A stretch of DNA of 43,310 bases from Diploschistes diacapsis (GCA_023645945.1 JALAIB010000037.1:1-43310); one strand, 5' to 3'. Shown: positions 18,101-40,522, counted from the stretch's first letter. The notes: generated by a model from the letters alone, not told the origin. Translations and numbers: made by a program.

Positions 18101-19531
18101 CACTCTGCTGCCATTCCTTTGCAAATTGAGGTATTGGGGGAAGTCGATTATCTGGACAGCCAAGAGGCTTGAAGGGCTTATTGCAAAGCACTAAGCTGAC
18201 AAGATCGAGTAACTTGTCTTGGATCTGGGCTTTGACGGGAGCAACATAATGGGCCATATCCACGAGTGCTTGGGTGAGAGCGTCACTGAGACCACATGCA
18301 AACATAATATCCAACAAGCCATCCTCGATAAACTTCGTCATAGCTTGGCCTACCGCCATTGAAAGCATACTTATGCAGTGAAAAATGGAGCCGTCCCTGT
18401 CGCGGCTTTTCGCTTTAGTCTTCAGACCGTCTTTTATTGAGTTCATCAGGCCGTCTAAGTACGGAACAATGGATGCCGAGATAGCTGTGGCAATCTTACC
18501 AATAGCTTGATATGCCGCCGAGCGTTCCCGGTCCTTTTTCAACTGGCCGGTAAGGAATATCATGAACTTCTGTAGGTAGAGGGCGCAAAAATCGGTGGGA
18601 GCGTACGAGGCAAGTATCGGAATCATCTGCACGACCTCGCTGCGGATCTTGGCGTCTTTATGAGCCTTGAGCTGTAGATCGATCTCGCAAGCTTCGCGAT
18701 AATGGTCCTGCATGAACATGCCCCCAGCCGTGAGCAGTTCCCTCATGATGAGAAGCGAGCCGTGCTGATAATCTGCGACTCCAGCCTTGAAACCAACCAG
18801 GCACTCATTCCACATCGATGTGAACCACTGCGTCCGAGTGCGGACATCTCGAGGTGCAAGAATCTCAAAGCACGTCGCAACCGCTTCAGCTGCCGTTTCC
18901 CGGATCAGAATTTTTGGATCCCTCAACGCGGACCAAATGTACTCGAGGATCTGAGGTATGTATGCGAAAATCAACGTAGGCGAGCTTTTGGCAAGTTCAC
19001 GAATCACTAGTGCCGCAGCGAACCTTTTTGTTTCCGATCTCTCCACTGTCAGCCACTCCAAGGCGGTCTTCACTTCGCTATCCACCAAATCCGCTGTCAA
19101 AGCTCCGCCAGGAGTGGCAAGTCGCCCTAGAGCCCGTGCCGCGTAAATGAGCACGTCCCCATCATTGGATCGTAGTGCCGCTCTCAAAAAGCCTGAGAAT
19201 CGCGTTACTTTCGCAGCTGCGTCTTCACCGCCAAAATCGAGCAATGCTTCCATAACCAAGATGCCTCCTATTTTCTCATTGGGATCCTGGCTCATTACAA
19301 TTGTGCTCGCTAGCCGAGAGTTGAGAGAGTTGTAGAACTCCACGAATCTGTCCGGTTGTAGCTCTGTCCTTATTTAGTACGGGTGTTCACGACATGGTAT
19401 GCTGGAGATGTACCTCTGTGAGCTGCAACAACCATATTTCGCAGGTCGGTCGCCGCCTTGAACCTCGCCTCGAGTCGCGGGCTCCGAAGTTCCTTGAAGA
19501 GGTTTTGCCATGCTCTTTCGTCGATCGGCAT
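12158..19531 (-). CDS. tor: Serine/threonine-protein kinase TOR (HEAT repeats, FAT, FRB, PIKK kinase domain, FATC); 4 exons (19531-19414, 19363-13891, 13834-13765, 13717-12158), 2406 aa
   Basis: 1818-aa and 465-aa ORFs join through GT-AG introns into one frame. [22 protein letters not shown]...AWDLYYGVF. Kinase: [58 protein letters not shown]. Confidence 0.98.
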
Positions 19532-20451: not shown

Positions 20452-22655
20452 CTAAGCAACCCAGAACCAAAACCTCTGAAGCATATTCTTGGGCTCTGGC
20501 CTCTGATCCAATGCTTCCAGAGCATCTGCCTCCTCTTTGCCAGTTCTAACATCGACATCATGTGTGGGTCGCACCCACGGTGTGCGATACCAGGCCTTGT
20601 GGCCAAAATAGAGTAAAAAGAAGGCCGGGATAGTGATACTAAGTCCTCGTAAGTAGAAATACGGACAAGGGGCCATTGACGACTTACTATGCCGCAAGGA
20701 AAGACGCAGCGGAGAATGAGTCTGGGAAAAAGACCTGGAAGCCATTCGTTAAGCTCAGGAGGACAAGTATGAACAAGGCAGCCCATGTAGTATATGGCTG
20801 GAACCGAGTCTTGTAGGGCCTAGCCTCGTAGATATTGTTATATATAAGTGCCTTCCTGAAACGAAGATAAGCCATGAGCAATGTGCACCAAGCGATGAAG
20901 CCAGAGATTGTCGTAAGGTTCAAGAACCACTCGAACACGGTACTGCTACCCTCCGAAACGGACATGTAGACCAGGCAGGAGAGCAGACAGGAGAAGAGCA
21001 CCGCGATCCACGGCACTCCTTGCTTGTTGCACGTCCTGAAGATTGCCGGTGCTTGATGTGATATCGCAAGACTGTAGAGGTTGCGACTTGCTGCGTACAC
21101 GAAGGAGTTTGCTGCGCTTGTTGCACTTGTGACAATGACCGCGTTGATGATGTGGTTGAGGACTGGGATTCCCGCGTTTTGTATACCCAGCACGAAAGGA
21201 CTGGCGCCAGCGTTCGAAACGCCGCTACTCACGGCCTGTAGAAGGTTCGGGTCGTTCGAGGCGACGATCACTGAGATGACCAAGGAACCTAGGACGTAGA
21301 AGAACATTAGACGGTAGACAAATCTTCGGCTTGCCTTTGGTATGTTCCTTCGAGGAGCTTGACTCTCGCCCGCTGTAATAGCCACCAACTCAGGGGAAGT
21401 GATAAAAGCGAAGCCCGAACGGACTAGAGCCGTCCAGAAAGCTAGGAACCTGCCAGTGGAACCTTGGGCTTTGTACGATACGAATGCCCCTGGCGTTTGC
21501 CAGTAATAGAAGCCTAGTCGAGTGTGGTCTGGGGCACCACCAAAAAAGATGACGACTCCTGGTGAAAGTCAGCAGCGTTTCCAGCAGAAGTCCTGGACAG
21601 CCTACCCAGGATTATAAGCCCCAAAATTGTAATCAATTTGATACTGCTCTTGGTCAATAGAAGTTCGCGTCCTCCAAAGTTGTACAGACCTCGCAAACCA
21701 GAATTCTGCCTCGCCGTAGATTGAGACCACGAAGATGTTGAGGAAGACAACGACTATCAGGATGATGGTGATCCAGACGGCCACAGGCACTGCTGTTGTC
21801 CAGTACTGGATGACAGTAGCAGCAGCGCTGATCTCGGCCGCCACAAGCATTGCGTACGTATACCTGGAGAATCATTAGTTCAGGGGTGGACGGGCATACT
21901 TCCAGAGGCCATTACCAGTAGTTCCATCCACTAGCGAAGGCCAGACTAGGTTCGAAGAAACGATTGATGTAGTAGGGGACTGAAACACCCGGAATAGGCA
22001 CGTAGGTTACCATCTCGGCCAGAGCGTTCACTGCGGCAGCATCCAGTCAGCAACAGGCCAATGTGGCTGGCGAGTGACTGACTGATCCACCAAAGGATGA
22101 TGCTCATGACGAAGAAGGCCATGAACTGGGAAAAAGATCAGCTCGAGGCCGTCGTCGAGGCTGCAGTACCGAGTCTGTGTGGCCAGCCATTCTCGCTTAC
22201 CAAGGGGGCGGGGCCAACAAGGGATAGGGTAGCGCCTGTGTATTCACATCAGTACGCCCAAGTTCATTCAAATCACACAATCAGACTGTCCTACCCGATC
22301 CAACAAACAACCCAGTACCTATTTAAGTCAAGCGTGATTAGGTCAACTGCTTCTGACTCTTCACAAGTAGAAGTCATGCAAACCTATTGCTCCACCCAGG
22401 GCTGTCATCATCAGTTCTCTTTCCTATTTAAAGACCACATCCTCCCTCCTTCTTACCTATCAGTTGTATATGCCTGGACTTCAAGCCTCTCTTTGTACTG
22501 CCATAGTGGTCGGCCTCGATCAACTGGCCTTCAAAGGCCTGTGGACCTTCATCTACCTTCTCTGCATCATACTTCTCATACATCTGAGCATCGTGGCTTG
22601 GCTTTGTTGATATTTCTTCAGCCACCAAGTCTTTCTTCGGTGCTCGATAGGACAT
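20452..22655 (-). CDS. APC/YAT-family amino acid permease (proline permease Put4/PrnB-like); 10 exons by manual splicing
   Basis: Spliced sequence reads [37 protein letters not shown]...NALAEMVTYVP...SLAFASGWNYWY...GEAEFWFASIK...AGESQAPRRNIPKA...SRNLYSLA...PYKTRFQPY. Nine GT-AG introns. Substrate is inferred. Confidence 0.92.
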
Positions 22656-25600
22656 CTTATTGTCTTATCAACAACCAATAATCTCAAGATGATATATATC
22701 ACTCAAGATCCACAGTACTTGGCTCGAGTCTCTCTCTGTGTCATCAAAGACCATGCAAGTAGGGAGGCTTTTAATCCAAACAGAGAGAGAATCGAAGGCG
22801 ACGAGCTTTGTCAATTGCGAGAGACAAGTTAAGCTCGCGGAGATCATGGGCTAGATGCATCTCGACCTCCAAGTGCTCCACCCCATTAAAACTGGCTATA
22901 CTAACGTCAAACGAGACAAGGCTAGAAGGTCTCTTTGGTTGGTCATCATCATTCGTTGATCGCCAGCACTAGGCTGTTTAAGGGATCCTTCTCGAAACCA
23001 GAGCAAAATCCTCGTACAAACGCCAAGAACATCCGCAACCGCTCCACTCTTGACAAACCTTCCTCCTCTTCTTTTCTTCAACCATCAACAATCACTACCA
23101 TAATGTTGAATATGAGCTCCGCCCTAATATATAAATGATTCGACTTGATGTATTTCCAGGAGATATCGGATAAGGCCTTGCCTCTTTGCACGAGACAGTG
23201 TCGGCTATGACCCTTCTGATCGACCCTTGCTGTCTTGGTCGCAACAAGCCGTCCCTTCTCTGCAGCTCTCCAAGAATGGCAGGCTAGCATAGGCACAGTA
23301 ACATCCAAAGGTACCAACAGAGACTTGTCTGTCTCTTTCATTCATGACAAATTATATTGAAAACATCGGAGAGCTTAGGGAAACTGTTTGCTTCTCTTTC
23401 AGTCCTCTATATAAACGCCTATCCCAGGAAACACATTGCAGGATACCAAGCAGTGTTTTTAAACAAGCATCGAGAGATGCTGGCACTGTATTTTTGAGCA
23501 CGCAGCGAGACAACAACCACGACCTACTTATCTCAAGTAGGAATTGGTGTTGTCTCTGTTTGCTGTTCTCATGAACTCACCAGGCAGGATCACAGGGTCC
23601 ACTGGGCATTCTCTTTATGCCTCACAATCCCATCATGCAGTTGCGCTAGATATCATACCGACCAAAGGGCTATAAGTTCTCCATCAGAGCATTCCAAGGA
23701 CCCCGCCTTTAGAGACTTCGCGAAGACCCCAGGGCTTGCTGTCCTCTCTGTGGATATATGAATAACTCAAGTCTTCCGTCTTTGCTCTCAGGCTGTTTGC
23801 AGAAATGATATAAAGTTAATTCGGTTTCCGATACTCATCTATATGAGCGCATACTGGACATCCTTATCAGACTAAAACCTCCCGTTCAGGGGCGGCGGTT
23901 TCTTCCGCGCGTGAGCCGGCCAAGAGATTTATTAACAATTTAGAAACATCGAACCAGTTCTACGACAGGCTCTTGTGGCAATCCTCTTGACTTTCCGGGG
24001 CAGGTTGAACTTTGTATTACTCTGCGAAGGAAGGAAGCAGACCGGCTTGGCTTCGAAGTACCTTCAGGATCATAACAGCCAAGGTTACCATAATAGGAAA
24101 TTTAGGATATCGAAGGCCCCAAACCTTTGCCAGATCCTCTTTTTTATATGAGCTTAGTGCACTCGTACTCTCGGTTCCTGCTTCCACCTCACGATTGGCG
24201 AGTGTTTCTACCACAATTCGCAGATGGCAACACAGCTCCGGTTCAGTCCATCTGCTGGTGCCGCTACTCTAATCCGTGGAACAACTAGGAGTTCTTGCCG
24301 AAACTGTTTCTTGCCAGGATGTTCTTTAGGTTTCTCGAGTATACAGCCGCCACTGGGGGATTAATACCCGAACGTAGTGTTTGGAGGGGAGCAGTGCGTT
24401 TGGGTCAAGTAGCGAATCCGGAGGCTCATATAAAGCTTACACATCCTGCGAGATCATAAGGATTACTCAACCTTTGCGCCATAGCGCAACATTTATATCT
24501 GAGGACTAAATGGCTTGGGCGTTCCCGAGAAGGTGATTTCTTGAACATCACCTTCCCCAACAACCGAGGGATAAACCAGTGAAACTGTATAGTGATTTTC
24601 AAACGACAAAATTCTTCTGTACTGCTGAGGGCTGGATCTTTATCTTGAGCATCAACAGGGCTCTTCATCAACCTCGGCCTCAGTCTCACATCTAGTGCTG
24701 CAAGCTCTTGTCACTGTTGTCTTTGTACGATCTTTCCTGACCTTGGTTGTATATGAGGCCCTCTTTCTTCGCTGGAGCGCGAATCCCTAGATGCAACCAG
24801 AATAGCGTGAGGGAAACTCTTTTTACTCATCTGATTCGTTCGCATGAATGACTTCGAGAGCTCTTATCAAGTATTACTTCATTCCGGGGTCCGACTTGAA
24901 CAACTAAATCACAAGAGCGGCACTCGGTAGGATGTCTCCTCTCTGGTGGCGATCACACTCTTCAGTTCAACCTCAGCATCCAAAGGATTGCTTCTTCATG
25001 ATGTTTGATCCTCTTCAGGACCGTACCTGGGAGCTTTGCGCTTGATCTTTCGCTCTTGAACTGAGCTAAGGCAGTGCTCAGGTGCGCTCTGCAGCTTCAA
25101 TGAGTATCTTAGGACTGTTGCTGGACGCTCTACTCGAAGTTTAACGATTGATATATATGACACCAGGGCAGCTGCATCGTTATCGATCGGCAATAGAACT
25201 TCTATTTAAGGAATCATCGTCTCGCCAGAACTTGCAACAGAAATCATCTTCATGGTCAGAACCTTCATCCTGAAATAATATTTCGGGATAGAACCTTTGT
25301 CCTGGAATTATTTTCACGGACAGGACCTTCGTTTAAAGTTCTCTTTAGAGACAGAGTCTTGCTCTTCAGACAATAATGGCCAGGAATCTTCTCTTGCTTC
25401 TCGACCAAAACTCTCCTAGTTTTCTCTGTATAGCACTTAGGACTCTTGTCAGACTGGTCACAGCTCGATAATCTACTACGATTCATCGCGAGGTCGTTTG
25501 TTCTCCCCTTTCGCGCCCAGGATTTGTGTAGGTCTGCAATAATTGACTGAAGCTTCGCACAATCCCTGCCCAATTTTCAGGATAGCTTCTTACAGATCTA

Positions 25601-26450
25601 GTCTCGATCATCTCCAGCACTTCGTCAAGCTGAGGAAGGCATAACCGTTCACCCATCTATCCTATCGAAATATCGCATTCCGGGCACTTCACTTTTGACA
25701 TAGTAAACCTCAGGATTGTCCTTCTGTTTTCCGAGCAGACTTGAAGGAATCGACGGAGGTGTACAAGGACCTTGGGCAGCTCTTTCTCCCTTGATAACAT
25801 TTGATTCAAGCTTTCAAAGCTTTCCAACTCTGTGCGGCTCTAGCTGTCTACTTCTCCTAGGTAGCGAGCAGAAGACTTCGCAAAAACCGGTTTGGCCAAC
25901 CCCAGGGCTCGCTCCAGCCTTGTGGCCTTCGAAGAATGTGCCAGGTCGACTGACTCCCTGCTGCAACTGTTCGAGCTTAACGTGAAATGTAGAATAGGCA
26001 GCTCGGTATTGAACCCATATCCAGTATACTGCTAAAGATTTCGGTACATGGTCCGTGGCAGCTTTGCATCCGACTTCTGGTGGACACCCCAGATGCGAGG
26101 GACTTGATCTTTATCATCCCACTCTTAATGAAGATCTGGCAACTTTCAACATGCGACTGGACAACAGGAACATCGGTCGAGTTCGTTGCCCATCAAGTCA
26201 TCTCCTTGAGGCTTCAAGAAAAATTCTCTCTAATTGCATTCCCCAGGGAATTTCGCTAGCTCCTCGCTGCAACTGCTTTAGAACATCTAAAACACATGCG
26301 GGTCATTTGTTTTAGCAATTGAGCGCACAAAGGAGACCATCTTTAGGGAGTCATCCCGTTGAGCTTCGCAACAAGATGATCGAGTTTCTCTCAGGCATCC
26401 CAAGCCAAGTCCCCGACTGACATATATATGACAACATTCGAAATAATTTG

Positions 26451-26704
26451 TCTGTCATACGGACCACAACTGTGAAGATAGGTCGTTGTCCAAAACTATA
26501 ATCCTGGAAAACAGGTGTTGTTCGAGTGACCACAATCAAGAACAGGCTGTCACACAAGCAATTATCCTGGAAAACAGGTAGTTGTAAGAGTAACGACGTT
26601 CGAAAATAGGCTATCACAGTCAAACACCTACAAAAGCAGGTCGGTATATAAGTCGCAAGACTCGGGAACAGGCCGTGGTGCGAATAGCAACAATTGAGAA
26701 CAGG
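26451..26704. repeat. Degenerate tandem array, 8 units of 30-33 bp (mode 32), each ending in a GAAAACAGG-like core
   Basis: AGG anchors at 26480, 26513, 26544, 26576, 26608, 26638, 26670 and 26702. Exact 16-mer ATCCTGGAAAACAGGT at 26501 and 26564. Confidence 0.8.
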
Positions 26705-28380
26705 CACTCAACCACTCTGCCTTTGGCAAGCCCAGCTCTTCATAAGTTTTCTCTTTTGTCTTCTACGGATGCTATCCGCAGTACCTTTACCCAGTACATA
26801 GGTATTATCGTCGGATCGTCTTGCAACTGCTTTGGATACTTCCTCGAAAACGCTAGGCTGACTCGGAGCTCTGGGTGTGGAAGTCGACGTCTCATCAGAG
26901 ATCGAGTAGGGCGCCAATTCGATTATATGATGCTTTATTCGAGACATTTGCAGGGAGCTTCGCGCTCATCTCTTTGGTCTTAACGAACACAGTCAGGCCC
27001 GCTGTCTCGGAAGAGGTGATTGCGTTCTAGGGAACCTTGAACATTTCGCAATGTCCTACTGAATACTGGGCCAGGCTTGCTGTTTTGAAAAGAGGTGACC
27101 AAGGTCCAAATATGACAGATGTCTAAAACTCCATCGACTCGTGCTGGAAAGAAAATGATGAGACTGGTAGGAACAACCGAGCAGATCTTGAACAGGCTAG
27201 CAGAATACTTCAGGTTTTCGTCGAGTTCTCTGAATGATCCATCGAACAATCATTGAAGAGGTGTCTTCCTCCGCTTTGACCTTTTTCTCCATTCATCTTC
27301 AGGCGAGCTGTGAGTCTCCAACTTCTTCGTGGAAAAACTTCTCCAATCTACGACAGGCGACCTGTCTTTCTCCATTTCGTCGAGGTGCCGTAAACTTTTC
27401 GTGGGAGAAGCTGCTTTTTCTCCATTGCATCTTGTTACCCGATCACAGAGGAGCTAGGTGGTTTCCCTTGTTCCACCGTGTCAGTATGCAACAACTCTCG
27501 AAGAGGAAACTGCCTTTCTTCACTTCGATACCCAATCTTGGCCCGTGTGCGAGAACTATAGGAATTCCCGATAGCTGTCCCAATGGCTAACACGGCCGTG
27601 ATGCCAAAGATCATGCAGTAGTTATCGAGGAGTTTTCGAAGGCTCCTACAAAGCACAAAATGCTGACAGGATATTTCCTACAAGTGCCAATACCTTAGGA
27701 TTTGATCGATCAGCTGCAGTTTCGGCACGTCTGCGAATGCGCCCAGAGACCTAAGGCAGATTTATCGCAGGCAAGACATTCTTAGCTGCGCCAACTCGTG
27801 GAAGATTGTGGCCAAGGAACGATTGACAAAATCGATGATTCGACAGATATATATGACAGACCCACATTTCGGTTTTAGAAGGCATAACGGACAGTGCAGG
27901 AAAGATCCTGGTGGACCTTTCCTTGGGTAGGACTGTCGTTTCACAACGCTTCTTCCCAGGTATCTTCTAGCACGAATACCGAACGCAGGAAGACTGTGTT
28001 GGCATCTCCTGATATAACTTTTCGTTCCATGATGTTGCATCTCCAGGTACCGTGCGTAACTGATACCCAGCGACAACGAGGAAGATCCACGTTGGTCTTT
28101 GGAACCTAGGGTTTTCTTTACCGCTTCTATCTTGCCAAGCACCTTCCAGCTTACACACTCTTTTCATCGGGAAACAATCCGCTGCAATCAGAGTCGGTTA
28201 GGATCTTCGTTCCGCAACGCTACCTTGCCAGGTATCGACTTTCTAGAGCTCATAGACAGACAGGAGTAGTGAAGATCTCGAGCCTGGAAAAAACGCAACT
28301 AGGACACAGACTCCGTATATACCTCGTTGACAGAAGACTGAGGCTGGTATTGTGAGAGCAGACGGATCCATAAGGTGATT

Positions 28381-31300
28381 AGAAAGGGTAAAGAGGATCT
28401 GGAAATGAAGGAGGAATTCCTCCGCAGTCTAGACTTGACCAGATATCTTCCTGAGCTTGGGATTGGTCAGGAGCACCGGAAATTTCGAACCTGCAGCCAC
28501 ATGAAGCCAGGATCAAAGCTGCGCCTATGAAGTTTTGATAAGGATGTGCTTTTGTATAACAGAGATTTCAAGGATCTGGAAGGGGAAAAGAGTTTCTCCT
28601 CACGATGGATATTGCTAGGTACTTGCCAGAGCCCAAATGCTGTCAGGAGCAGTAGGGATTGTGAACGGCGAGTAGATTTTGAAGCCAGGAGTAACACCGC
28701 GGCCACACAAAGCTCTAGTAGAAGGGTACAGGCTTGTATAACAACGGCTTCGAGGATATGAAGACGAAAGGAACTTGTCGCAAGCTGTACTGGAAGCAGT
28801 CATACAAAACCTCTCAAAGACACAGCGGTGCTCTCTCCAAAGCTTGGAACAGGTCAGGGATGATAGAAGAAGCTCGAATAGTGAGACCCAATCGCGATCA
28901 AACAGCTATCGTTGAAGGTATGGTGATTGAGAAGAAGTCGTCGCGCCTGCCGAATCATCCTTTGTTCCATCAGAGCTACCCCTCGCCACAAAACCAGAAT
29001 GATCTCGACGATACTTACGCCGAAGAAGAGTTTCGCCAGCGCTGTTATATAGCCATAACTACCTCGAAAGTAGGAGTCGCGAAGAGTTTGAGAAGGCTAT
29101 GTTGAGGCAACGAAGGAAGGAATTTGAGTAGCTATGTACCGTCTTCACAGAATGTATTTGGGGCGCTTCCTCGCCACTCAATAGGCTCGGAGAACATGCC
29201 AGGAGAGAATATCAGGCCTTGAACAATTTTGCCGAGACAATGCTGAGACCTGGAGGAGTTTTGCAGTTCCACGGTACATCTGAGAAATCTTCCTAGGACG
29301 TAATGGTCGATGAGACAGGAAGAGCCACCGAACAGACTCATCTAGGGACCCTAAGCCACCGCCGTGAAAGCAGCAATAGGATGGCCTTGCGGCGCTTCTC
29401 TTTCAAGGCTTTAGGACATATAATATGCCTGTCGAGAATATCAGGTTCTGAGTTTCGAAAGCCTCCCGATTTCATTTGGCTTAAAGAAAGCAGTATACAT
29501 ACGGGGCACAAACAATATTAAACATAGCGAACGAGAAACTTTTGTGGAAGAGTCCGCAACCAGCTATCATTCCCAATGTTTTTTGAAAGAATTGGACAGA
29601 AGCACGAAGAGTATAAAAGGAGAAGGGAAAGGTGCGCAGACATGTTGAGTACAGGAGACAGTTCTTCCTCCACCTCTATATGACAGGATCACAGAGAAGT
29701 ATGAAGAGCATGAAAGGAAAATGGGGAGAGATGTGTGGACCGGGAAATAATCATCTTCCTTATCGGACATATGAAGACAGAATAGCAGAGAGACTGGAAG
29801 AGCATGATAGGAAAGAAACGGTATTGCATACAGAGTTCAGGAAATACTTGCCTTCCTCTCCGCACAAAACCAAAACCAAGGGACAACAAAACAACCTTGG
29901 TTTAAAGCGGTAGGGGACAGTCCTCTTTCTCAAACAGCTGTACGACCGGGCTACCACGTGACTTAAGCTATTTTCTAAGCTTACTCGAAGAAACCAGGAT
30001 TTCGTCGAGCAGTCATTATACATGATGGAACCAGGAGAGACAGACAGTATTTCTGCAATGCTTCAGTCTTCAGCTGCTCCACGATAGAAAGAGCTCTTTC
30101 CGTTCTTGACTGCGAAGAATCACCATAGGAGTTAGTGCGCATTGATTCGACAGTGCGGTAGAGGAAGCAATCATGGGTTGGGAGATAAATAAAGCTTCAG
30201 CGTGAGGTCCTGATGCAGACAATAAAGAATTCCGCACAGGAACAGCTGATAAGTTCTTGAACTTGGAATAAAGTGCCGGATTCCAAAGTGGTCAAGGACT
30301 TCTTCTCTTTTCCATCAAAGCCCGTGGATAGGAACCAGTAGGAGAATGGATGAAAGAGAAAGTCAAGAACAGTGAGGGAGTTTGGAAGTTTTATAGATGA
30401 GACGATATCCTCAGGCAGCAAGCTGGGCCGACATTGAAGCAAAGGCAGTATATACGACCCAAGAAATACATTATAGTTTCCTCGCAGCGTTTCGCTCTGG
30501 ACGCGCCATTCGTTCAGGCACTACCACATATATTGTCGATATAGCGCAGATAGATGTCTTTTTCAATGACATCTACGAATCAGGGTCTGCCGCGCTCTGG
30601 ATGATAAAGGAGGAACAGGCCGTGACTTCTTCCGATCTGGATATATAGTGCAATCAGGAAGCAGTGAAGTTGTCCGCAATATCAAACGAAGTGAGGCATC
30701 TGGCAGGAGCTAGATCGACAGTGACCTGGGAGCCGCCAGCCACATAGAGCCGCATCTGGAAAGCCGAGATGAAGCTTCTAACCACCATCGCCGCCGCAAC
30801 CATTTTTCGCCCCTGTGAGTGCTGCCGAGGCAAGTCGTGGCGGTCAAGCAGGTATTCAAGAGATCAAAAAAGCTGAAAAGGGATGCAAGCGGGCAAACTT
30901 AGAGGATAGGACCTGCCGCCTAAACACCACGTATTGAACAAGGATGGCTTGTTGGGTTAAAGAGTAAGATCAAGGAGCAACCGAGCATTGCGGCTGTATA
31001 TGAGTTTGGCGCCGTGTTAGAGGCTGTTTTCGTTTCATATTAGCCGTCCCAGGAGATTGGAACAACAGACTGTTCAATCAGATAACACCCAGGAGCCTGG
31101 TGGTGCTGGATCGGCAAGATTGGCAGGGCCATGTGCACCACCACATATAAGAGAGATTCAGCTTTCTTGTAACTCTCCACCACAGATGAGTGTAAAAACA
31201 CGATTACAAGTGAGGGATAGCAAATAAGTTTTGGATCTTGTATCGGTATAAGAAGTTCGAGTGGCGAAGTACCAGGCCTCTTGTGCAAAGATACGCCGAA

Positions 31301-32605
31301 AACATAGACCTGGGACCAATATCAAAGTTCCACAACAATAGAGGACCAGGACTCTCCGACTCGGTACTCCACACCCAGGGATCTAATATAAATACCCAGC
31401 ATCTATATCAATGGAGGACTGGGACTTTTCTCCTCCGTGAGCACAGATCCAGGGATCTAGTATAAATACCCATATCCACGACAGCGTGATATAGGATTTT
31501 CTTGTTCGATACACCCAGAATTGACTTCGATAGCGATCACAGTGGCAGCGAAGCGACAAAGAAGTCAAAGACCAAGATATTATAAAAATAACAGGCCTCC
31601 GGCTTCACTAATGACAGGAGCTCTGTATCCAAATATATCAGATGGCTTCATTTAGGCGCGTGCATCCACTTCTAATTGCGTGTAAAGAAGCTCAGGCTTG
31701 TGATAAAATCGTCGGAACGTTCAAAGCGCTGATTAGCTGTCCAAGGGTAGTAATCTTTCCCCCATTTGATACGGAGACTCGGTACGAGGATAAGGAATCT
31801 CATTTGCTTTATGCTAGAATCAGGATCAATTCGAATTCGCTGGGCGATAGAGGCAGGATCAATCCATTGCTTGATGCTCGATTCAGGACCAGTCCATCTT
31901 TGAGCCATAATGCAACCACACTGGTATGACGCTAGGCACTGTATATCAAACGTTTCTGCGAGTCAAGCATTGTCTCGAATAAAGAGGAGATGATTGTGGA
32001 GCTTCGTCGCTTGAGGCTGGCCAAGCTGGAGAGGAACTATACCTGCAATAGGCTTAGGCGTAACAACCTCTCGCAGGTCTGTAAGCATATCGCTGCCAGG
32101 ATCATCCCTGACATATCAGACGCTAGCACGCAGAAGACGTTGTCCATAAGCTCCAACGAATCGTCTATAGGCGCCATGCATTTAGCATCGCAAAATAAAC
32201 TAGGCGTCTGTCCAAAGCCTGGTATACGCGACCTGAAGTTCATGTAGACAAGGAGGTATTGGCGGACTAGGATCAGAAAGAGTGGTATTTCGTTTGGCAC
32301 AGGTTCTCAGGCTGAGATCATGGTCATCGTAACCTATATATGACGGATAACGATTTGAAGCATTTATGTATGACAGGATTTTGGTGGATTGGTCACCCAT
32401 AATCTTCAACGATCCCAAAGTCGCCCCACCGCCTCTTTCCCATGGGAATTCGTATCCCTATACCAAGACAAGGGCGAGCAGTTACTTGCAGGAATTTTGT
32501 GTGTTAAAGTTTCTGGTACTCTGAGAATTGGAGTCCGACGCAGAAGGAATGCTTTACAAGTGCCGCTACTGCGTTGATACTCACTGCGGTGACTGCCTCG
32601 ATTGA
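28381..32605 (+). pseudogene. Fragmented NACHT-ankyrin-ZZ zinc finger gene (fungal NLR-like)
   Basis: Fragments in order. NACHT-like: KEEFLRSLD..LLYNRDFKDLEGEKSFSSRWILLG, LSQAVLEAVIQNLS (~28775-28815), FRQRCYIAI (29031), LPYRTYEDRIAERL (29755), ELVRIDSTVR (30129). Ankyrin-like: PHRAASG (30740), AEKGCKRANLED, PSIAAVYEFGAVLEAV, LHTQGSNINTQ, IQGSSINTH, LMTGALYPNISDG/HPLLIACKE, AMHLASQN. ZZ-like: GMLYKCRYCVDTHCGDCL (32546). Walker A is not recognisable; many stops and frameshifts. Confidence 0.6.
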
Positions 32606-35600
32606 AGCCATATGGAGGGTCCCAGTGACGATATCGAGGGATTCCAGCTGCTAGGGTTCGGCATGAGTGATCAGATGTTGGTCTTCAGGTGCCTACAACG
32701 CTACAAGAGCTATCCAGGCTATCCCCTTTGCGGGACTTGATGCAGCAATAACCTAATTACCTCCAGGATCGAAATTGGAGCAGAGTGCTCACCAGGCGTC
32801 TTTGAAGGTCTTATACGAGGTACCATGTGCATATATGGTGATCGATATCTCAGCGCAGAAGAGTATAGGATTTCATAACAATGACTGGCAGAGTATTTCG
32901 AACAGGTTCGGACCCTTATACAGAGCGCGGATTAGGCATTCCTTTTTGGGAGCTTTGATGCGGTGCATTGCACGTATGGCAGACGACACGATCCTGCACC
33001 GGTTTGCGGAATGTTGGGATATCGGCGAGCCAGCTGCCTTCAAGTACTGGTACCTGGTTATCAATTCCAGGGTAGGCATCTTCGTTGGAGCATAGATCGG
33101 ATATTCTGCCTATAGATGATATTGCAGCTCACACAGACAGCTCAAGTTCAAAATGCAAGAGAATGACCGGTTAGTACGCCTGGTTCCCATTAGGAACTTG
33201 AAAATTCGACAAGTCAGACGTTCCGAGGACTAGATTCAACCCTGCATCTAGCTCAGGTGTTCACTCGGTAGCTTGGATCAGGTGTGTGTATATGAGATAA
33301 CAAATGGCGTCTCAGAACGATCACTCTCGTTGCATCTTGCATCAGACGTTGGCATGGACGACCTAGGCTGACCGGCAAATCCACGCAGTCTCACACAGGA
33401 ACTTTAAAGTTTTCACAGGCTGGAGGCCCCGAGGACTGATTTAATGCTCTATGTAGCCTAGGCATTCCTCATAGAGCATAAATCTTACTTTTTGCGTATA
33501 TGCGGCAGACACCAGCACTCGCAACCGAAGTGCACGAACTTGAACTGTAGCAAAAATATAGATCTTCCGAGGATGATTTCCAGTCAGTCTTTCAGCATAG
33601 ATGCTATCCCGAAAGAGCCCAGCGAAAGCTTCCAGTAGGTTCTGCGAGCATCTGGAACTGGCCAGATTCAGGAAATTCACAGTGCTGTAACCAGTATAGA
33701 TGACATGGATCGAGACTCTGCCCAATGAAGAAACCATGCTGTTCTATTCCGCGAGGTTGTCGTACCACAACACTTTTGAGAAAAAAACCCTTCTATTTCT
33801 TTTTGAGGCTGCTGCACTCAAAAATTACCTTCGCAGAGATAATATGTTGCCTTGAGAAAATCCGCAAAAACCCTGGCTGAAGATGCCAAGATGACTGCTT
33901 CGAGTGGTCTTTATCCCGTATATTCTCAAAGCTCTATCCTCAGCTATTCTCGCAGCGTCTCCATCCCTGAGGAATTTGGCTGCCCACCTCGTACCTGTAT
34001 TTCTCTATTGGATGTCTTTCAGGATTTTGCTAAGAGCCCGTGAGGTTCCATACTATTTAGCCTCCACTTTCACATATATGAGCATACACGTTACTCTTCG
34101 ACAACCAACGTGGCTCTAACATTGGTCAAACGTCATCAAATCCCAGCTGATCTGAGTCCAGCCCTTTCCGGATACTCATTGGCTCAACATATCTTCGACT
34201 AGGGAAAACACCATAGATAGCAGCTGCGTCAGGAGATCAACAGCGTCGTTAGCAGAAATGGATCTGATAGGCAAGTGTAGCTAGAAAAGATTTGGTTCGG
34301 CAGGCTGCTTGGCTGACAAGTCCATATTATCCATTTCAGGTTTTGACTTTGAAATAGCCACTTAGTGAGTTTACACACCGATCACGGTTCCATGGAACTG
34401 GAACTTTGAGCGGTTGGGATGTTGTTGAAAAACCGTTGCGATTGAAAGGCACAGATCCGCAAGAGGTCCCCGAGTAGCCCTTACAAAGCGCCGCTATTCG
34501 ATATATACTTCTCGAGTAGCTAGCTAATTTGTAAGGTGGTGTTGAGCTTTTCGACTGTCCGCCGGAGAGCCACCGCGTGGAATTTTCAACGGTATCGGAA
34601 TGCCGTGATAGGAGGACAACGACCAATCTTCCCTTGAAGTTGGTGCTGAACTACCCGAATACTGCCAGGAAGACACACAAACCCTGTATTTAAACCAGGA
34701 AACACTTGTCAGGCTTTCGAAATGAGCGAGGAGGAGCACAGCAACTCTTCAAACTGCAATGGCTTCTTCCATACACAGAAAGTCGAGAAGAGACGCCAGA
34801 CCGCCCTTCAGAAGCAGGCCTGTTCCATATATATGACAACCAACGACTTGCCAAAGCTTGAGTTTGGTGCAGAAGCCTCCGAGTACCGATAGATACATAC
34901 CAATAGACACATACCCATTATCTGCTGAGACAAGGTAAACATACTTCTTTGTCTGAGACACCATTTCTGAAGAAGGTTATTGAAGAGAAATTGCAACAAT
35001 GTGTTCTAGGTCAGAAGAACAAAACAAGTGTGCTCCAGGGCCGAGGGCCAAAATGGTGTAGCTAAGCCCGGGCAAGGATTCGAGCTGACCAATCTTTCCA
35101 GCAGCAGAGACTTAAGCAAAAGGGAAGTGGCAATCAAGAGCTGTCGGAAGTTGTAAGAAGACATCTAGGGAACCCAGCCGAAGCGACCAAGTCCCTTATA
35201 TATGACTTCTCGAGCGAGCCGCCCAGCTTGGACTTTGGGCAAAACACCGAAAATTTACAGGAAACGAACACCATTCGTTCTTTTAAGAGGATGAACCTTG
35301 CTGAGCTGTTGCCATATTGCGAGGAGAATGAAGATCCCAACGTCTTGGTTATAACCTTCAGTCCATCTGGGCTGGGTGGCCACTTCCGGTGGCGTAGTGC
35401 ATGCGGGACATTCAAAACTAAGACGCAGGAGAGAGCCGCAACTTCTCTGGGCGCGTTTTATTTCATCTCAGAGAGCGAGGCTAGCTGAGCTGCTGCCACA
35501 TTGTGAGACGAACAATCTTCTTTCCTTTCCAAAGAGAACGTGACTTGCAAATCATTCTGACGGTCGCTAGGAGAACGACCATCATTCCTTCTCCATAGAG

Positions 35601-37340
35601 CATCAGGCTTGCTGAGCCTATTCTAATGGCGGCAGGAGACCGACTGCCTGTGTTGTTAGGCTTCGTGAACAAAAGCTCTGAGGTAGGGTGGCTGACGTAG
35701 AAGCCGTCATTCACAACATATATGAGTTCTTGAAGGCTGCGATCCGGCAATTAGAGCCTATGAGGATCGTAGTAAAGAGCTGGTCGATTAGAAGAATTTC
35801 CGAAAATAGACCATATAACATGAACTCGAGGTGGAAGCAAGGAGCTATATCAAAGGCCACAGGAGTCTTGCAAATAAAGCAATTTACGCGAGACTTACGG
35901 GACTGGGACCCCACGGATTAGTACACTTTGACCGTTTCTCTCATGGCAAAGTAGACATTCTGGAGGAGCACCGACAGAGTCTGACGGAACCCTGACTGCC
36001 TTCTCCAGGAAGTTGAGAAGTGATTGTTGGATTATAATGTGGAATGGCCACCATGGATCCATAAGCCAAAGGAACATTCGTTGTCTTTCGAAGCCTGTTG
36101 GTCTTGAAGAGGCACTCGGCTAAGCTCTACTTCTTGAACTGCCAGGAAGTTGTGCTTCGACAGTCAACGAGCATTTGCGGAGTCCCCCAAGCAGGAACGG
36201 TTGAGGACCACTTTTGTCCGATCTTGAAGTCCGACTAACGAAGTAGGCCAAGCATGTGACCTTAATGGATATGAAGGTACATCGCGGCCGCGAGGATGGT
36301 AAGTACTCGATGTGGAGACCATCGAATCTTGATTGTCCCGCCATCACCGCCTTAACAAGGTCTTCTTTTCTACCCGAGCAAGGCAGCCGACGCAGAAGGA
36401 TATCAACATCGGCGCAGGAGCCACGTCTTTTGTTTGATGTCTCAAAGTATATGGATCTTGGACACGGTATTCTATAGATTAGGCCCAACTTATTACTCTG
36501 ATTCGAGCCCTCTAGAAATGGAAGCTGATATTTATGAGGATGTTGCCGTTCGTTGCGGGAGTCTGTGTATATCGCGTCAGTTGACGCATGACAGCAGTGT
36601 TGAGAAGGAGATGAACCGAAGTAGGATATCGGGTTGAAGACGATCACGCTCTGATCCTCGGAGTGGAAGATAGGTTGATTCGAGTTGACCGGACCGTGAA
36701 CATGGCTCAAGCTCTCTATGGAGGAAAGCTAGAATGTCTTAGGATTATGCTGTTTGTTGTGACTGTCCGTATATACCGCATCGGCAAGATGAACGATAAA
36801 AGTGTCGAAAAGGAAATGGCCTAGAAGATGAGATGGCATGGAGGAAAGATCGTATTTCATCCTTCGGATCATATGTTTGTGAGTTGATTATGGTCATCGA
36901 TATGGCTCATTCTCTGAATAGTCAAGCAAAGTATATGAGCGCTTTGCTATCTGTTATGAGTGTCTTCTTATATTTCTTCAGCTAGATGAATGATGAAAAT
37001 GCTCTTCACGAAGGGTTGGCGTTGTATTCTTCGAAGCGGATCGCAGGCTGGTTTGAGTTGTCGATATCTCTTTTCTGTTCATCAAATGTTTTTGCAGGCA
37101 GTCTGTGCGTTCTCTTGTCTGCCTGTATGATCTCTTCATGGCCCTGAGGGAGCTGCAAGACTTGGGGTGCAGTGGGTATGTCTCTGCTCGTCATTTCAGG
37201 AAGACATTGACAGATTAGGTGTGCAGATCTTTTCATCCGTGGAATCAATATCAGCAGAGGTGCGTAACCAGAAGACTGATATTAAAGGGATGAAAGAGTT
37301 TCAAGTGTTAGCTCTAGACGCTCAACCTTTGTACACGGAG

Positions 37341-37379
37341 AAGAAGAAGAAGAAGAAGAAGAAGAAGAAGAAGAAGAAG
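37341..37379. repeat. Perfect (AAG)13 trinucleotide microsatellite
   Basis: Read directly; it produces the poly-Lys run in ORF 37167-37439. Confidence 0.95.
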
Positions 37380-40300
37380 ATGCTTAAGACTATCTTAAAG
37401 CAAGGAGATAGGCTGGCGATGAGCAGCAGATTAGGATGAAAGAAATTTTCCAGGAGTACAAGTCAAAAGAATTCAAGCGGCCTGCAAGAATATCTTTCGG
37501 TATATGAGACGCTTAGGTCTTTGCTTGTGCTGGTTACTATTCCCGATCTAGTGGAAGTTTGCTGCATCGGGAGCGACATCGTCTGATAGCCCCCTTCCCA
37601 AATTGGCTAATTCACAAGCACATGGTCCGACCCTTAGCAAACACCCCTAAGAAATCAGCACCAACCACTTGCGAACACGCCTAGGAAGGCTCACGCCCTA
37701 CCGCTATCCTTCTCAGGAACCGCCGGCGACACTCTCCTGAAGAAGACGATGAGCCTCTGCCACAGTTCTCGGTGCTCGCCATAAACCGTCTACCACAACC
37801 CCGAAGAAAGCAATTCAACGCCACCATGCACGCACAAGCAGCTCCAGACAGCTCAACACCCTGCACAGTTCCGCCAGCAATCTTCTAACTTTCTTCGATC
37901 GTCTACACTACTCCCGGCAGACTGACTTTCCTCGACTCTCTATTACTTCTGACCCTAGAAAATCCCTCGCTCGAAGTCCTTACCGCCATTCCTAGGAGAC
38001 CATCTTTCCTCTTCTCAACAGCTTAAGATTGAGCCAAGAGAGGCTGCTTGGTCAGTACAGGGGCTTGTCTCTCCCTCTCAGTAATTCAGCAGCTGCAGCA
38101 ACCAGAGTCTCCTTTATATACTATCAGAAACAGCCAATTCAACACTCCTTCCAAGTCCTTCGCCACAACCTCCAGCTTCACATCCTACTACTCTCCAATC
38201 AAACAAGCAGAGGCCAGGTCGAAATTTGCCCGCCCAAGCGCTCACCGTGCTCTCGTCAATTCCCTTTTGCAAGCGTCCGAATACTACAGTTGCGGTCAAG
38301 GTCTATATAAATGAGGAATAAGAGTCTACGGCGTTCCCGGGATATGGTATCGACTGGTGCTTTGCTTCCTGTTGCCGAGAGAAGAAGAGCAAATCGACAG
38401 GCTGTCTCTTCCGCTTGAGGATGACATCAAGATGCCAGGTGCCACAACCGGCGGCGTGCTTTCCCTCCCCGGCAGCGCTGCAATACCGAACAACAGGCAG
38501 GGCGAGTAGGTTCCAACAAACATTCAGTGGTGCCGGTTTGTCTCTCAAGCCACGCAGGGCGTTCAGGAGCTAGCTGTCTGGCTTTCTACAACCACACAGA
38601 ACTCCGCGTCAAAGGCGTTCCCTTCTCTTCTCCCACCAACAACGACTTGCGATTATGCGAGGAAAAGAAGCTGATTATAGCACCGAAAAGGAGCCGGTTA
38701 CCAAAAAGAACTCGATCTTAGGCGGGTGCGTCTGTTGTACTCGCAACGCTCGACAGGTGAAAGCAACAGAAGCAATGGCTACAGATGCCACTGTAATGAG
38801 AGAGGCACCAACAATGTGAACTACATCAGGGAACGAAAACCAACCACAACATGCCAGCACCGCTATAAGCCCAGAGGCTCTTCCCTAAAACCCCGATTCA
38901 CGAATGGAAGTGACGACGATGACGAGGATCCTGGCTTCATATCCATCAGCAGAGCAGGCTCCCGGGGCAATAAGCAGAATATATAAAGGAGAGAAAGCCG
39001 GCTACAACACACGGTCAGCAAAGTCACAGGCGTGTGCATATACCGCGTGGGCCTTATCCTGCACCGGAACGGAACGCAATGAAACGAACGCATCGGTTAC
39101 GGGCTTCACAGGCACCAGTTGCCAAAGCACGGCAGCCAGACCGGAGGTCAGGGACGAGAGTGGAGTGCAACAAATCCAGCAACCGTGACAGTGGCAGGTT
39201 CGCGGATTGCACTCACTATACAGCCCCCTTTCGTGAATGGAGCAGATGTGGGATAAAGGCATCCAGGCTCCACAGCAGACTCTGTGCACGACAACCAGGC
39301 ACATCTACACAGCATCAAGGCTTTGCTGGAAGCATCCCCATGAAGTGGATTACATCAGGAACCACTCGGCTCCACCCCACAACACTTGCTCTGGGGGAAG
39401 CCAATCCAGACGCTTGGGATCCACCCTACAATATATACAAGCCCGTAGTGCTACTAGTCGGATTCTGCTGCAAGCACAGAAAACAAAGAGCCAGGCCTCG
39501 CACCCAGCCGTGACGTGCACATTGTCAGAGCATAAGCAGGAGCCATGCGTATGGAGAACCCAGCGCTACACCACCTCCCCTTCGCTACAGCCGCTAAGTT
39601 ATTATGCTACAAAGCTACTATATAGACAAAATGGAAGAACATACTACTATTTCACAGCCACGCAGAGCGTTATAGTGACCAGATACGACCTCCAGATATC
39701 CTAGGAAAGCGCTGCATCACCTCGACACATGGGTTACAGTATCATGGTAAGCCCGTAGATGCGATTCGCTATCTTAGACCAGGGCTGTTGCGGTCGCTGG
39801 CTTGGGGGGATGTGCGGACGAGATATGAGCAAGTATGGAAGTAGGAGGGTTTGGGTGGTTTTTGGGACTGGGATTGGGAGGGAATATTGGGTAGAGGTTT
39901 TGGGAGGAAGGTGCCGGTGCTTTGGGGTAGATGTTGCGGTTGAGGGAGGCCGCAGTGATATATGATTGCCTAAACGGGCATTGCAAGCAAAACAATGGAT
40001 TGCGCGGTAGTTATGTTTTGCGATGTCCATGGAAGTAGGTCAGTAGCTTAATATAGCATGGTATCTTAGGATGTCCGAATTTCAGGCGATAGCATAGTAA
40101 TGCACGAAATGAGAGAGCGTGGAATTGAATACTGCTACCGACATCTTCTATTGTAAAAGCGTACAATGATAAGCAATATCTAACAAAAGGATAGAATGCC
40201 CGAGGATTTTATTTCCAAGACGGCTGTCCACAATAAGAGCCTGAAAACAGTCACGCCAAGACCAGTAACCCTGACCCGTAGCCCTGGCCTGACGCCCCTT

Positions 40301-40522
40301 TTGGCCTCCCATTTATCTACTAACAAATTCTACATAACCTGACCGATGCCCCAATTCAAATTTCGCCCTTTTTGCTCTTTCTCTCTTCCTAACTCATGCT
40401 TTCTGGTCGTATTTTAATACTTAAATCTCGCACCTTTCCTTCAGCCTCGCCACGTCACGCGCAGCGCACCAAACGCCCTTTCTTGGCACACCTTAACACC
40501 TCAACCATCCCATTGGATAGAC

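Follow-up and report, generated by a model that had tools for sequence, protein, structure and literature searches.

The ORF-free domain at 22500..37750 (+ strand), about 15 kb of the 43,310-nt stretch of DNA analysed here (the window), carries a one-strand YAGGA/AGG lattice together with an array of TATATGA words, which no other part of the window does. These unrelated words share the same orientation and the same domain boundaries. Our tentative interpretation is that protein-binding sites form a directional array here, the simplest version being a long non-coding RNA (lncRNA) that bears them; resting on one locus, this reading is possible rather than probable. To our knowledge, the pattern matches no known system that can be named.

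Content and composition of the domain

The neighbours of the domain are an amino-acid permease gene (20.3-21.6 kb, - strand) and a small C2H2 zinc-finger gene (40.4-41.0 kb, + strand). The lattice ends at about 37.75 kb, 2.7 kb short of the latter gene, and the interval at 38-40.4 kb is likewise without clear coding. GC content of the domain is 0.45-0.49, that of genes about 0.50-0.57. Throughout the approximately 15 kb, ORFs do not exceed 140 aa on the + strand and 202 aa on the - strand, and a period-3 signal was not found. None of the 219 stop-to-stop ORFs (at least 45 aa, both strands, 22.6-38.9 kb) reached the Pfam cut-off, and the longest + strand ORF had no relative among 5.8 billion proteins. 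Three TATATGA copies had previously been placed in a dead NLR gene. This NLR (NACHT/NB-ARC) pseudogene is not supported, as all six frames of 28500-33301, read through with X at stops, yielded no Pfam family at E <=0.1.

Rfam families and tRNAs were not found in the domain, and the nhmmer self-search recovered no dispersed family, merely nine weak local matches. A RIP-mutated repeat was rejected since no RIP signature was present, both indices being flank-like (TpA/ApT 0.73-0.76; (CpA+TpG)/(ApC+GpT) 1.28-1.32). The domain could not be assigned to any of the families tested. Short, weak same-strand local duplications occur throughout, with periods of 30-33, 63, 74, 94-97, about 180 and 311-369 nt. 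Neither canonical intron signals nor the poly(A) signal showed polarity in the domain, nor did the words of known fungal RNA-binding proteins that were examined (Nab3, Nrd1, DSR, PRE, Whi3). The + strand is purine-rich at 28-32 kb and pyrimidine-rich at 23-27 kb, and the polarity spans these two regions.

The TATATGA word

Within 23755-37507, the + strand has 18 copies of TATATGA and the - strand a single one (24426..24432), a polarity with a binomial P of 7.6e-5. Outside the polar domain, one further + copy is present (39959..39965, followed by T), which is probably not part of the array. All these counts and coordinates, as well as the confinement of the polar word to the gene-free domain, agree with the earlier note. 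The following base, recounted, is C in seven and G in nine copies (16 of 18 together, as claimed before), the form RTATATGAS accounts for 13 of the 18, and the count of six for the extended form ATATATGAC was reproduced. From left to right on the + strand, the array starts with copy 1 at 23755..23761 (then A), followed by 23840..23846 and 24145..24151 (both G type), 24750..24756 (GTATATGAG), 25154..25160 and 26425..26431 (both ATATATGACA), 26924..26930 (then T) and 27850..27856 (ATATATGACA). Copy 9 (29677..29683, TATATGACAGGATCA) has CAGGA immediately after it. The array continues with 30997..31003 (GTATATGAG), 32337..32343 (ATATATGACG), 33289..33295 (GTATATGAG), 34075..34081 (G type), 34830..34836 (ATATATGACA), 35199..35205 (ATATATGACT), 35719..35725 (G type) and 36932..36938 (GTATATGAG), and the last copy (37501..37507, GTATATGAG) lies 121 nt past an (AGA)14 tract.

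Both the enrichment and the polarity of TATATGA are real. Comparison with local di-/trinucleotide backgrounds had been set beforehand as a check, and the enrichment survived every background tried (expected 0.7-3.2 under the local Markov models). Markov models of 23001-38000 (+) predicted 0.69 (order 1), 1.92 (order 2) and 3.16 (order 3) copies, and the highest count in 100 simulations from local Markov models was 8. Under a strand-symmetric order-2 model (expectation 1.74, P = 6.5e-13), TATATGA was the top-ranked 7-mer. Dinucleotide shuffles of the whole window gave an expectation of 3.56 on both strands, and 20 copies were reached in none of 100 shuffles. Other fungal-type loci, 167 kb in all, contained 11 copies, both strands summed. 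Each of the 21 one-mismatch variants was found only 0-4 times on the + strand, i.e. at background level, which makes TATATGA an exact word.

The flanks of the copies (+-150 nt) are no more similar to each other than random positions are (alignment scores: mean 15.6 and maximum 25-26, as against mean 15.7-15.8 and maximum 27-28). As the earlier note had supposed, these are not transposon copies, and a dispersed transposon or MITE family was rejected on these scores and on the nhmmer result. Base composition is flat around the word. As for the irregular spacing of 85-1800 nt reported before, the range holds (85-1827 nt, about one copy every 0.8 kb, or 1.3 per kb) while the irregularity does not, since the copies are spaced more regularly than chance would place them (CV 0.55, P = 0.0075). 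The remark that the word contains a bZIP half-site is unsupported because no second half-site follows TATATGA[C/G]; columns +8 to +24 show no base preference, and bZIP (Gcn4/AP-1) sites were rejected on this ground.

The AGG lattice and its register with TATATGA

The skew of YAGGA is the stronger one-strand signal and was overlooked in the earlier note. In the domain, YAGGA is present 92 times on the + and 21 times on the - strand (P = 8.7e-12), as compared with 46 vs 44 in the remaining window. The skew of YAGG vs CCTR holds in all 1.5-kb bins of 22501-37500, whatever the local purine skew, and the cumulative YAGGA skew climbs from about 21-23.4 kb up to about 37.7 kb. CAGG sites total 126, of which TGCCARG, a word that we take to be the PacC/Rim101 site and that is itself polar in the domain (9 + vs 0 -), accounts for only nine.

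The sites are spaced. Gaps of 25-27 nt between consecutive AGG were observed 5 times (13.1 expected), those of 28-30 nt 40 times (12.2 expected) and those of 31-33 nt 28 times (11.4 expected). For AGGA pairs, 32 were counted at lags 29-35, where order-3 simulations gave 11.2 (sd 3.7; highest of 150 simulations, 28), and 17 at lags 6-27, where they gave 36.0. AGG(A) sites are seldom closer than 28 nt to one another and are in sharp excess at 29-35 nt; the gap profile steps up at 29 nt and tails off to 36 nt and beyond, without peaks at 10-11 or 21 nt. Among all 3-mers and frequent 4-mers, exclusion combined with a peak is confined to AGG(A) (2.75x; 3-mer median 1.10), and the effect is absent from the - strand and from sequence outside the domain.

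Lattice units taken by lag (sets of 24, 16 and 15) have no conserved column besides C-AGG-A. When 89 units were pooled, three extra columns deviated weakly (chi-square P = 0.0006-0.007), none of them being a fixed base. Since only C-AGG-A is common to the units, this core has persisted or repeatedly arisen while the remainder was randomised. As regards a tandem-repeat or minisatellite array, overall self-identity at lag 32 reaches 0.264 (mean 0.2526; z = 3.0), and TRF detected one 32-nt array of 2.8 copies. In the longest visible chain (26480..26705, + strand), eight AGG sites follow one another at 30-33 nt and have the core RRAACAGGY in common.

TATATGA is in register with this lattice. In 10 of the 18 copies, the nearest upstream AGG is 24-35 nt away (17.5% expected, P = 3e-4), and AGGA is scarce at +1 to +35 of the word (1 vs 6.6 expected, P = 0.007). 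The directional reader proposed in the earlier note is thus strengthened by an independent lattice on the same strand.

The predicted RNA accessibility of both words is unremarkable. CAGGA has a predicted unpaired probability of 0.39 vs 0.43 in flank-shuffled controls, i.e. no loop preference, and TATATGA one of 0.62 vs 0.55. An RNA-fold signal is absent in the 26480-26705 chain (z = -0.9 on the + and -1.1 on the - strand).

A proposed directional array, possibly on a long non-coding RNA

The model that we favour treats the 15-kb domain as one directional unit with two superimposed single-strand signals. The first consists of about 90 YAGGA sites with the core C-AGG-A, spaced like close-packed hard rods, and the second of the 18 exact TATATGA words, occupying slots of the AGG lattice. 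Transcription of the domain in one direction would produce a long non-coding RNA, or a few consecutive ones. On this multivalent platform or decoy, each AGGA would be the docking site of a sequence-specific RNA-binding protein whose footprint is about 29 nt, and the sparser RTATATGAS words would be those of a second factor. The + strand would then be the one that is read, and selection may be what keeps both signals in place.

Sites in a transcript would all have to keep one orientation over 15 kb, which ordinary sites of DNA binding need not do, and two unrelated one-strand words with shared orientation and boundaries speak for reading as a transcript. Counted against an lncRNA are the ordinary accessibility of the sites, the lack of a fold signal in the clearest chain, the flat composition around TATATGA and the lack of polarity in known RNA words. 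A non-coding transcription unit of 15 kb would also exceed the usual length in fungi. In favour of an lncRNA, clusters of short motifs on multivalent decoy RNAs are known from fungi (meiRNA, PMC3352096) and animals (NORAD, PMC8192489). However, meiRNA-L has roughly 8 DSR per kb (PMC3352096), and the far lower 1.3 TATATGA per kb observed here likewise count against the lncRNA.

We consider it conceivable, and doubtful, that the domain represents an undescribed kind of chromosomal element, a 15-kb single-strand 'ruler', in which a reader covering about 29 nt would be tightly packed on C-AGG-A anchors and the exact word RTATATGAS would recur every ~0.8 kb for a second factor. If so, a two-tier code would build a large ribonucleoprotein or nucleoprotein body in a lichen- or rock-associated ascomycete, with chromosome pairing, segregation and sequestration of RNA-binding proteins as candidate roles.

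Relatives and the alternatives

The domain was found in two further public runs with about 96% identity, which indicates that the locus is real. Differences from the relatives amount to 69/1659, 28/712 and 30/886 in the domain and to 6/582 in the permease gene. With this roughly fourfold faster divergence, the domain on average evolves like unconstrained DNA. In one relative (run X3), 63 nt are missing (29117..29179); the gap starts just past an AGG and ends 3 nt short of the following TAGG. These data bear on a rather unlikely alternative, namely that the domain has no function and that its signals are by-products of head-to-tail short duplications (roughly 30-370 nt) or of directional mutation in junk DNA, with the TATATGA copies as recent or chance survivors. 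The divergence, the AGG-bounded indel, the richness in weak same-strand duplications and the slight excess of all 3-mers at lags 29-35 (median 1.10) would fit such an origin. However, duplication copies all words alike, yet exclusion and peak were found only for AGG(A), and where the unit bodies are randomised, a neutral core should likewise have decayed. Nor do 18 exact 7-mers without an excess of one-mismatch variants look like neutral relics. As for directional mutation, substitutions relative to the relatives are strand-symmetric (A>G 89, T>C 79, G>A 104, C>T 87), so that no such process is now active, and the missing RIP signature is equally at odds with this alternative.

It is also rather unlikely that the domain is a polar element acting at the DNA level, i.e. 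an oriented protein array on duplex or transiently single-stranded DNA. Small regional centromeres, loci for pairing or partition and polar fields of fork or loop barriers are candidates, in which the proteins would bind along the AGGA lattice and TATATGA would be a second mark. The missing RNA-structure signal is neutral to such an element, which would be in keeping with 15 kb of unique, ORF-free DNA whose GC is slightly below that of its flanks and with the ~31.5 nt spacing, equal to three helical turns. The family of repeats of EBV oriP provides a precedent, being a plasmid-tethering array of about 30-bp units. On the other hand, a shared orientation over 15 kb is not required of sites in duplex DNA, and the spacing profile is a step with a tail instead of a peak centred on the helical repeat. 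Centromeres of Zymoseptoria tritici are of a similar size class, but they lack a consensus motif and as a rule include expressed genes (PMC4589918).

Improbable is a giant regulatory region, loaded with transcription-factor sites, upstream of the C2H2 gene (+) or the amino-acid permease gene (-). Some fungal master regulators do have very long upstream regions, the C2H2 gene follows downstream in the same orientation, past an interval without clear coding, and the polar TGCCARG would suit this explanation. Nevertheless, transcription-factor sites work in either orientation, which leaves the strict polarity of about 110 sites unexpected; the lattice also halts well before the C2H2 gene, TGCCARG makes up a small part of the CAGG sites, and the second bZIP half-site is missing. 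Finally, the wreck of an NLR, of other genes or of same-orientation retroelements, with polar words as coding-strand relics, is highly improbable: although purines prevail on the + strand at 28-32 kb, as they do on coding strands, polarity persists through the pyrimidine-rich 23-27 kb, and the searches for period-3, Pfam families, protein relatives and a dispersed family described above gave nothing.

Comparison with known systems

The directional array proposed here shares features with several systems. With the CENP-B boxes of alpha satellite and the bacterial KOPS and Chi, long DNA carries oriented words for protein binding, placed regularly or with a skew. CENP-B boxes reside in homologous tandem monomers, and KOPS and Chi are oriented by replication; neither context applies to the domain. 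Sponge RNAs of the CsrB/RsmZ type are bacterial, a few hundred nt long, and titrate one protein by many GGA sites (consensus near CAGGA), which are located in hairpin loops 10-30 nt apart. The domain differs in its spacing of at least 29 nt, the lack of loop preference and its eukaryotic host, and a GGA sponge of this type was rejected on the predicted pairing of CAGGA and the lack of an Rfam match.

Among centromeres, those of Z. tritici (mean 10.3 kb, range 5.57-13.55 kb) are described as unique sequence that is not AT-rich and has no repeat basis (PMC4589918). The domain, too, is unique and gene-poor, and its roughly 15 kb falls in the 5-15 kb class of small regional fungal centromeres, but it has motifs and lacks genes. 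NORAD, a mammalian 5.3-kb lncRNA, sequesters Pumilio by protein-binding elements with regular spacers (PMC8192489), and its modular layout resembles the exact words at quasi-regular intervals found here. Its units are mutually homologous, whereas our flanks are unrelated, and the hosts belong to different kingdoms. A Pumilio sponge was rejected, as UGUANAUA (TGTA.ATA) occurs on neither strand of the domain and no unit homology was found.

In fission yeast, meiRNA (sme2) acts as an Mmi1 decoy via clustered DSR hexamers, meiRNA-L having 9-13 copies of U(U/C)AAAC in 1.1-1.6 kb (PMC3352096). The suggested Mmi1/DSR analogy fails for the hexamer itself: T[TC]AAAC is not polar here (11 + vs 7 - in 23-38 kb, 8 vs 11 elsewhere in the window), and this decoy type was rejected. 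Unlike meiRNA, the domain is ten times longer, has about six times sparser TATATGA and possesses a second, spaced lattice. What the two have in common is a fungal non-coding locus with many copies of a short word on one strand and unrelated DNA between them.

Genomic setting of the polar domain

The window represents fungal nuclear DNA. Its minus strand carries a TOR kinase gene at 12158-19373, recognised as two long ORFs with FAT, mTOR, PI3/4-kinase and FATC domains (the FRB domain is interrupted by an intron near 13727-13886), and an amino-acid permease at about 20.3-21.6 kb. A DAHP synthase and an MFS transporter are also present in the window, and a small C2H2 zinc-finger gene is located on the plus strand at 40.4-41.0 kb. 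The polar domain analyzed here extends over about 22.5-37.75 kb and was mostly counted as 23001-38000.

This domain had been described as gene-free, and the description stands. The period-3 signal present in the TOR and permease genes was not found in it, none of the 219 stop-to-stop ORFs of at least 45 aa (both strands, 22.6-38.9 kb) reached the Pfam cut-off, and Rfam and tRNA scans gave no match. The longest plus-strand ORF, which spans copy 15 of TATATGA, had no relative in a large protein collection. The earlier note had also placed a dead NLR gene here. The six read-through frames of 28500-33301 match no family at E <= 0.1, and with no ORF reaching the Pfam cut-off either, this gene is without support. 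No RIP signature was found, the indices of the domain being equal to flank values.

A perfect (AGA)14 microsatellite lies at 37339-37380, near the right end of the domain. This tract accounts for the GAAGAAGA-type 8-mers at the top of k-mer lists, and the contigs of the fully matching lichen-metagenome run break at it.

TATATGA as an exact, one-strand word

The counts of TATATGA in the earlier note were all correct: 18 plus-strand copies in 23755-37507, one minus-strand copy at 24426 and one plus-strand copy at 39959, with C or G following 16 of the 18 and six copies corresponding to ATATATGAC. The extended form RTATATGAS accounts for 13 of the 18 copies and occurs neither on the minus strand nor elsewhere in the window. 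Two subtypes can be distinguished among the copies, ATATATGAC(A) and GTATATGAG.

Survival against a local higher-order background had been set beforehand as a refutation test, and the enrichment does survive it. Markov models fitted to the plus strand of 23001-38000, with the copies themselves included, predict 0.69 (order 1), 1.92 (order 2) and 3.16 (order 3) plus-strand copies, with a maximum of 8 in 100 simulations. In whole-window dinucleotide shuffles, 3.56 copies were expected on both strands, and 20 were reached in 0 of 100. No 7-mer deviates more than TATATGA from a strand-symmetric order-2 model (1.74 expected, P = 6.5e-13), and a comparison set of 167 kb from other fungal-type loci contained 11 copies, both strands summed. 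The word is also exact, as its 21 one-mismatch variants stay at background (0-4 each on the plus strand).

The flanks of the copies were correctly reported to share no obvious similarity: over ±150 nt, they resemble each other no more than random domain positions do, and an nhmmer self-search of 22.5-38.5 kb returned only nine hits, all weak and short-range. Neither flank comparison nor self-search revealed a hidden 0.8-kb repeat unit. As for spacing, the reported range holds (85-1827 nt), but the copies are spread more evenly than expected by chance (CV 0.55, P = 0.0075).

Several conventional roles of the word were considered and rejected. Against a frameshift or readthrough site, the motif places its TGA and ATG in each of the three frames, and no long open frame precedes or follows it. 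An alternative genetic code is contradicted by the occurrence of TAA, TAG and TGA in every frame of each kilobase. Open lengths downstream of TATATGA are random (3-78 codons), which does not fit starts of small ORFs, and a 3'-end processing signal would lack A-rich/U-rich context, base composition being flat within ±400 nt of the copies. Introns or splice sites are not indicated either, with plus versus minus counts of 13 vs 12 for GT[AG]NGT, 20 vs 20 for CTRAC and 2 vs 2 for intron-like patterns. The literature matches listed for the strings TATATGA and UAUAUGA were primer and siRNA listings; as only matches of this type are among them, we base on them no claim that the motif is undescribed.

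A lattice of YAGGA sites on the same strand

The same 15 kb harbours a second one-strand signal, overlooked in the earlier note. CAGGA occurs there 59 times on the plus and 13 times on the minus strand, and TAGGA 33 and 8 times; for pooled YAGGA, the counts are 92 vs 21 (P = 8.7e-12), compared to 46 vs 44 in the remainder of the window. On the opposite strand, the two words of the domain take the forms TCCTR and STCATATAY. The YAGGA skew holds in all 1.5-kb bins of 22.5-37.5 kb, including 23-27 kb where the plus strand is pyrimidine-rich, and it is therefore not an effect of purine skew. The strongest skew in any 5-kb window of the control loci was 14 vs 3, whereas the domain reaches 44 vs 7 and 30 vs 2.

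The sites form a lattice with a characteristic minimum spacing. Gaps between consecutive AGG of 25-27 nt are rare (5 observed, 13.1 expected), followed by an excess at 28-30 nt (40 vs 12.2), 31-33 nt (28 vs 11.4) and 34-36 nt (21 vs 10.6). The AGG autocorrelation is low at lags 1-27, climbs abruptly at lag 29 (24 vs 8.1 expected) and then decays, with small bumps near 63 and 94. For AGGA, 32 pairs were found at lags 29-35 and 17 at lags 6-27; 150 order-3 simulations gave means of 11.2 (sd 3.7, max 28) and 36.0 (min 17), respectively. Only AGG(A) behaves in this way: the median ratio at lags 29-35 over all 64 trinucleotides is 1.10, and for AGG the effect was found neither on the minus strand nor in the remaining window. 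Twenty chains of at least three sites each are distributed across 23.6-35.6 kb, the longest comprising 8 sites (26480-26705). Within the units, conservation is limited to a C at -1 and an A at +3, and overall self-identity at lag 32 is just 0.264 against a mean of 0.2526. A profile of exclusion, then a sharp maximum at the minimum spacing, then damped echoes suggests a close packing of fixed-length objects.

Since GGG is low and AGG high, G-to-A hypermutation (GG to AG) was considered. By arithmetic on 3-mer counts, a shift from other NGG words could account for no more than 106 of the 155 extra AGG; moreover, GG is not scarcer than CC (796 vs 747). Telomere-like TTAGGG seeds were rejected too, GGGT and GGG being depleted.

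The region 4500-11700, where the period-3 signal is weak and several ORFs match no Pfam family, was used as a non-genic control within the window; it contains no TATATGA and no YAGGA skew. The 2.4 kb separating the polar domain from the C2H2 gene (38000-40400) are also without clear coding signal and without lattice, and are C-rich on the plus strand (CCC 30 vs GGG 10 in 37501-39000). Short degenerate head-to-tail repeats were noted at 29585-29814 and 31802-31893, one set comprising three copies at intervals of 94-97 nt and a second one three copies at intervals of 30-33 nt. Every copy of both sets has CAGGA or TAGGA at the equivalent unit position.

Coupling of the two words

For 10 of the 18 TATATGA copies, the distance to the closest AGG upstream is 24-35 nt, as opposed to 17.5% of all positions (P = 3e-4), and AGGA is rarer in the 35 nt downstream (1 vs 6.6 expected, P = 0.007). 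From this register and depletion, TATATGA apparently takes up lattice slots. Two other words occurred on the plus strand only in 23001-38000: TGCCARG, the PacC/Rim101 binding site, with 9 plus and 0 minus copies (5 vs 5 elsewhere), and CTTGAAC, likewise 9 vs 0. They may be additional words of the polar kind, or chance results given the large number of k-mers.

Related versions of the locus

A public lichen-metagenome run contains the stretch completely and is its possible source, and two others, one from a coded organism and one from a rock metagenome, carry related versions (0.31 and 0.21 of sampled words). In both of the latter, contigs extend across the domain, with each of the 30 bins covered. 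Divergence amounts to approximately 3.4-4.2% in the longer listed pieces (69/1659, 28/712 and 30/886), compared to 6/582 in the permease gene, and substitutions are distributed symmetrically between the strands (A>G 89 vs T>C 79; G>A 104 vs C>T 87). A stretch of 63 nt is missing in one relative; it runs from just past one AGG to 3 nt short of the next TAGG. In metagenome_contigs, an exact 22-mer had 0 matches, and permease relatives were at most 62% identical, with no TATATGA cluster.

The lichen-metagenome contig spanning the domain begins at 22426-22455 with a loose end resembling a sequencing-adapter remnant. A contig of the rock-metagenome relative bridges the junction of domain and left flank (21869-22562), so this join is real. 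In one of the two related runs, contig pieces end at 26931, 29669 and 35720, within 8 nt of TATATGA copies at 26924, 29677 and 35719; these are 3 of 16 ends, from 8 listed of 347 pieces. This may be chance, or could reflect strain variation at the sites.

Interpretation

Because two unrelated words share orientation, boundaries and register, the sequence points to something that would read one strand along the whole domain. We favour selection maintaining the words over neutral relics, as the cores persist in units whose remaining sequence is randomised, and TATATGA is without decayed variants. RNA would be the simplest single-strand medium. Our best, still tentative, reading of this one locus is thus a putative long non-coding transcript acting as a multivalent platform. 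Counting against it, predicted accessibility and folding of the sites are unremarkable, giving no signal, and none of the known fungal RNA-binding words considered is polar in the domain.

Growth of the domain by short head-to-tail duplications, with no function involved, is a rather unlikely origin; the numerous weak local repeats, the rapid divergence of the domain and the indel of 63 nt would all fit it, but it leaves unexplained both the AGG(A)-only spacing and the exactness of TATATGA. We consider unlikely a polar DNA element, for example a small regional centromere. The domain matches centromeres of Z. tritici in size and uniqueness, as these are presented in passages of PMC4589918; in the same passages they are without motifs, unlike the domain, and the step-like spacing profile is unlike helical phasing. 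A giant regulatory region is improbable, and decayed genes or transposons are more improbable still.

Short one-strand word arrays are a means by which decoy or scaffold RNAs, and some centromeres, gather one protein in many copies. Only a few fungal cases are known, and none known to us has a packing-type spacing readable directly from DNA. If functional, the lattice predicts the footprint of its reader (about 29 nt), an anchor (C-AGG-A) and a second word, with which synthetic oligonucleotides could be designed to fish directly for the reader. The domain is a case of structured information in 'gene deserts' of poorly studied fungi that can escape both gene finders and repeat finders; were the pattern a by-product of DNA growth, it would still be a warning for motif-based scans.

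As a multivalent platform, the putative transcript would work in the manner of meiRNA or NORAD. The DSR hexamer of meiRNA and the Pumilio element of NORAD are neither enriched nor polar in the domain, which is not a member of either family; the likeness would be one of mode of action.
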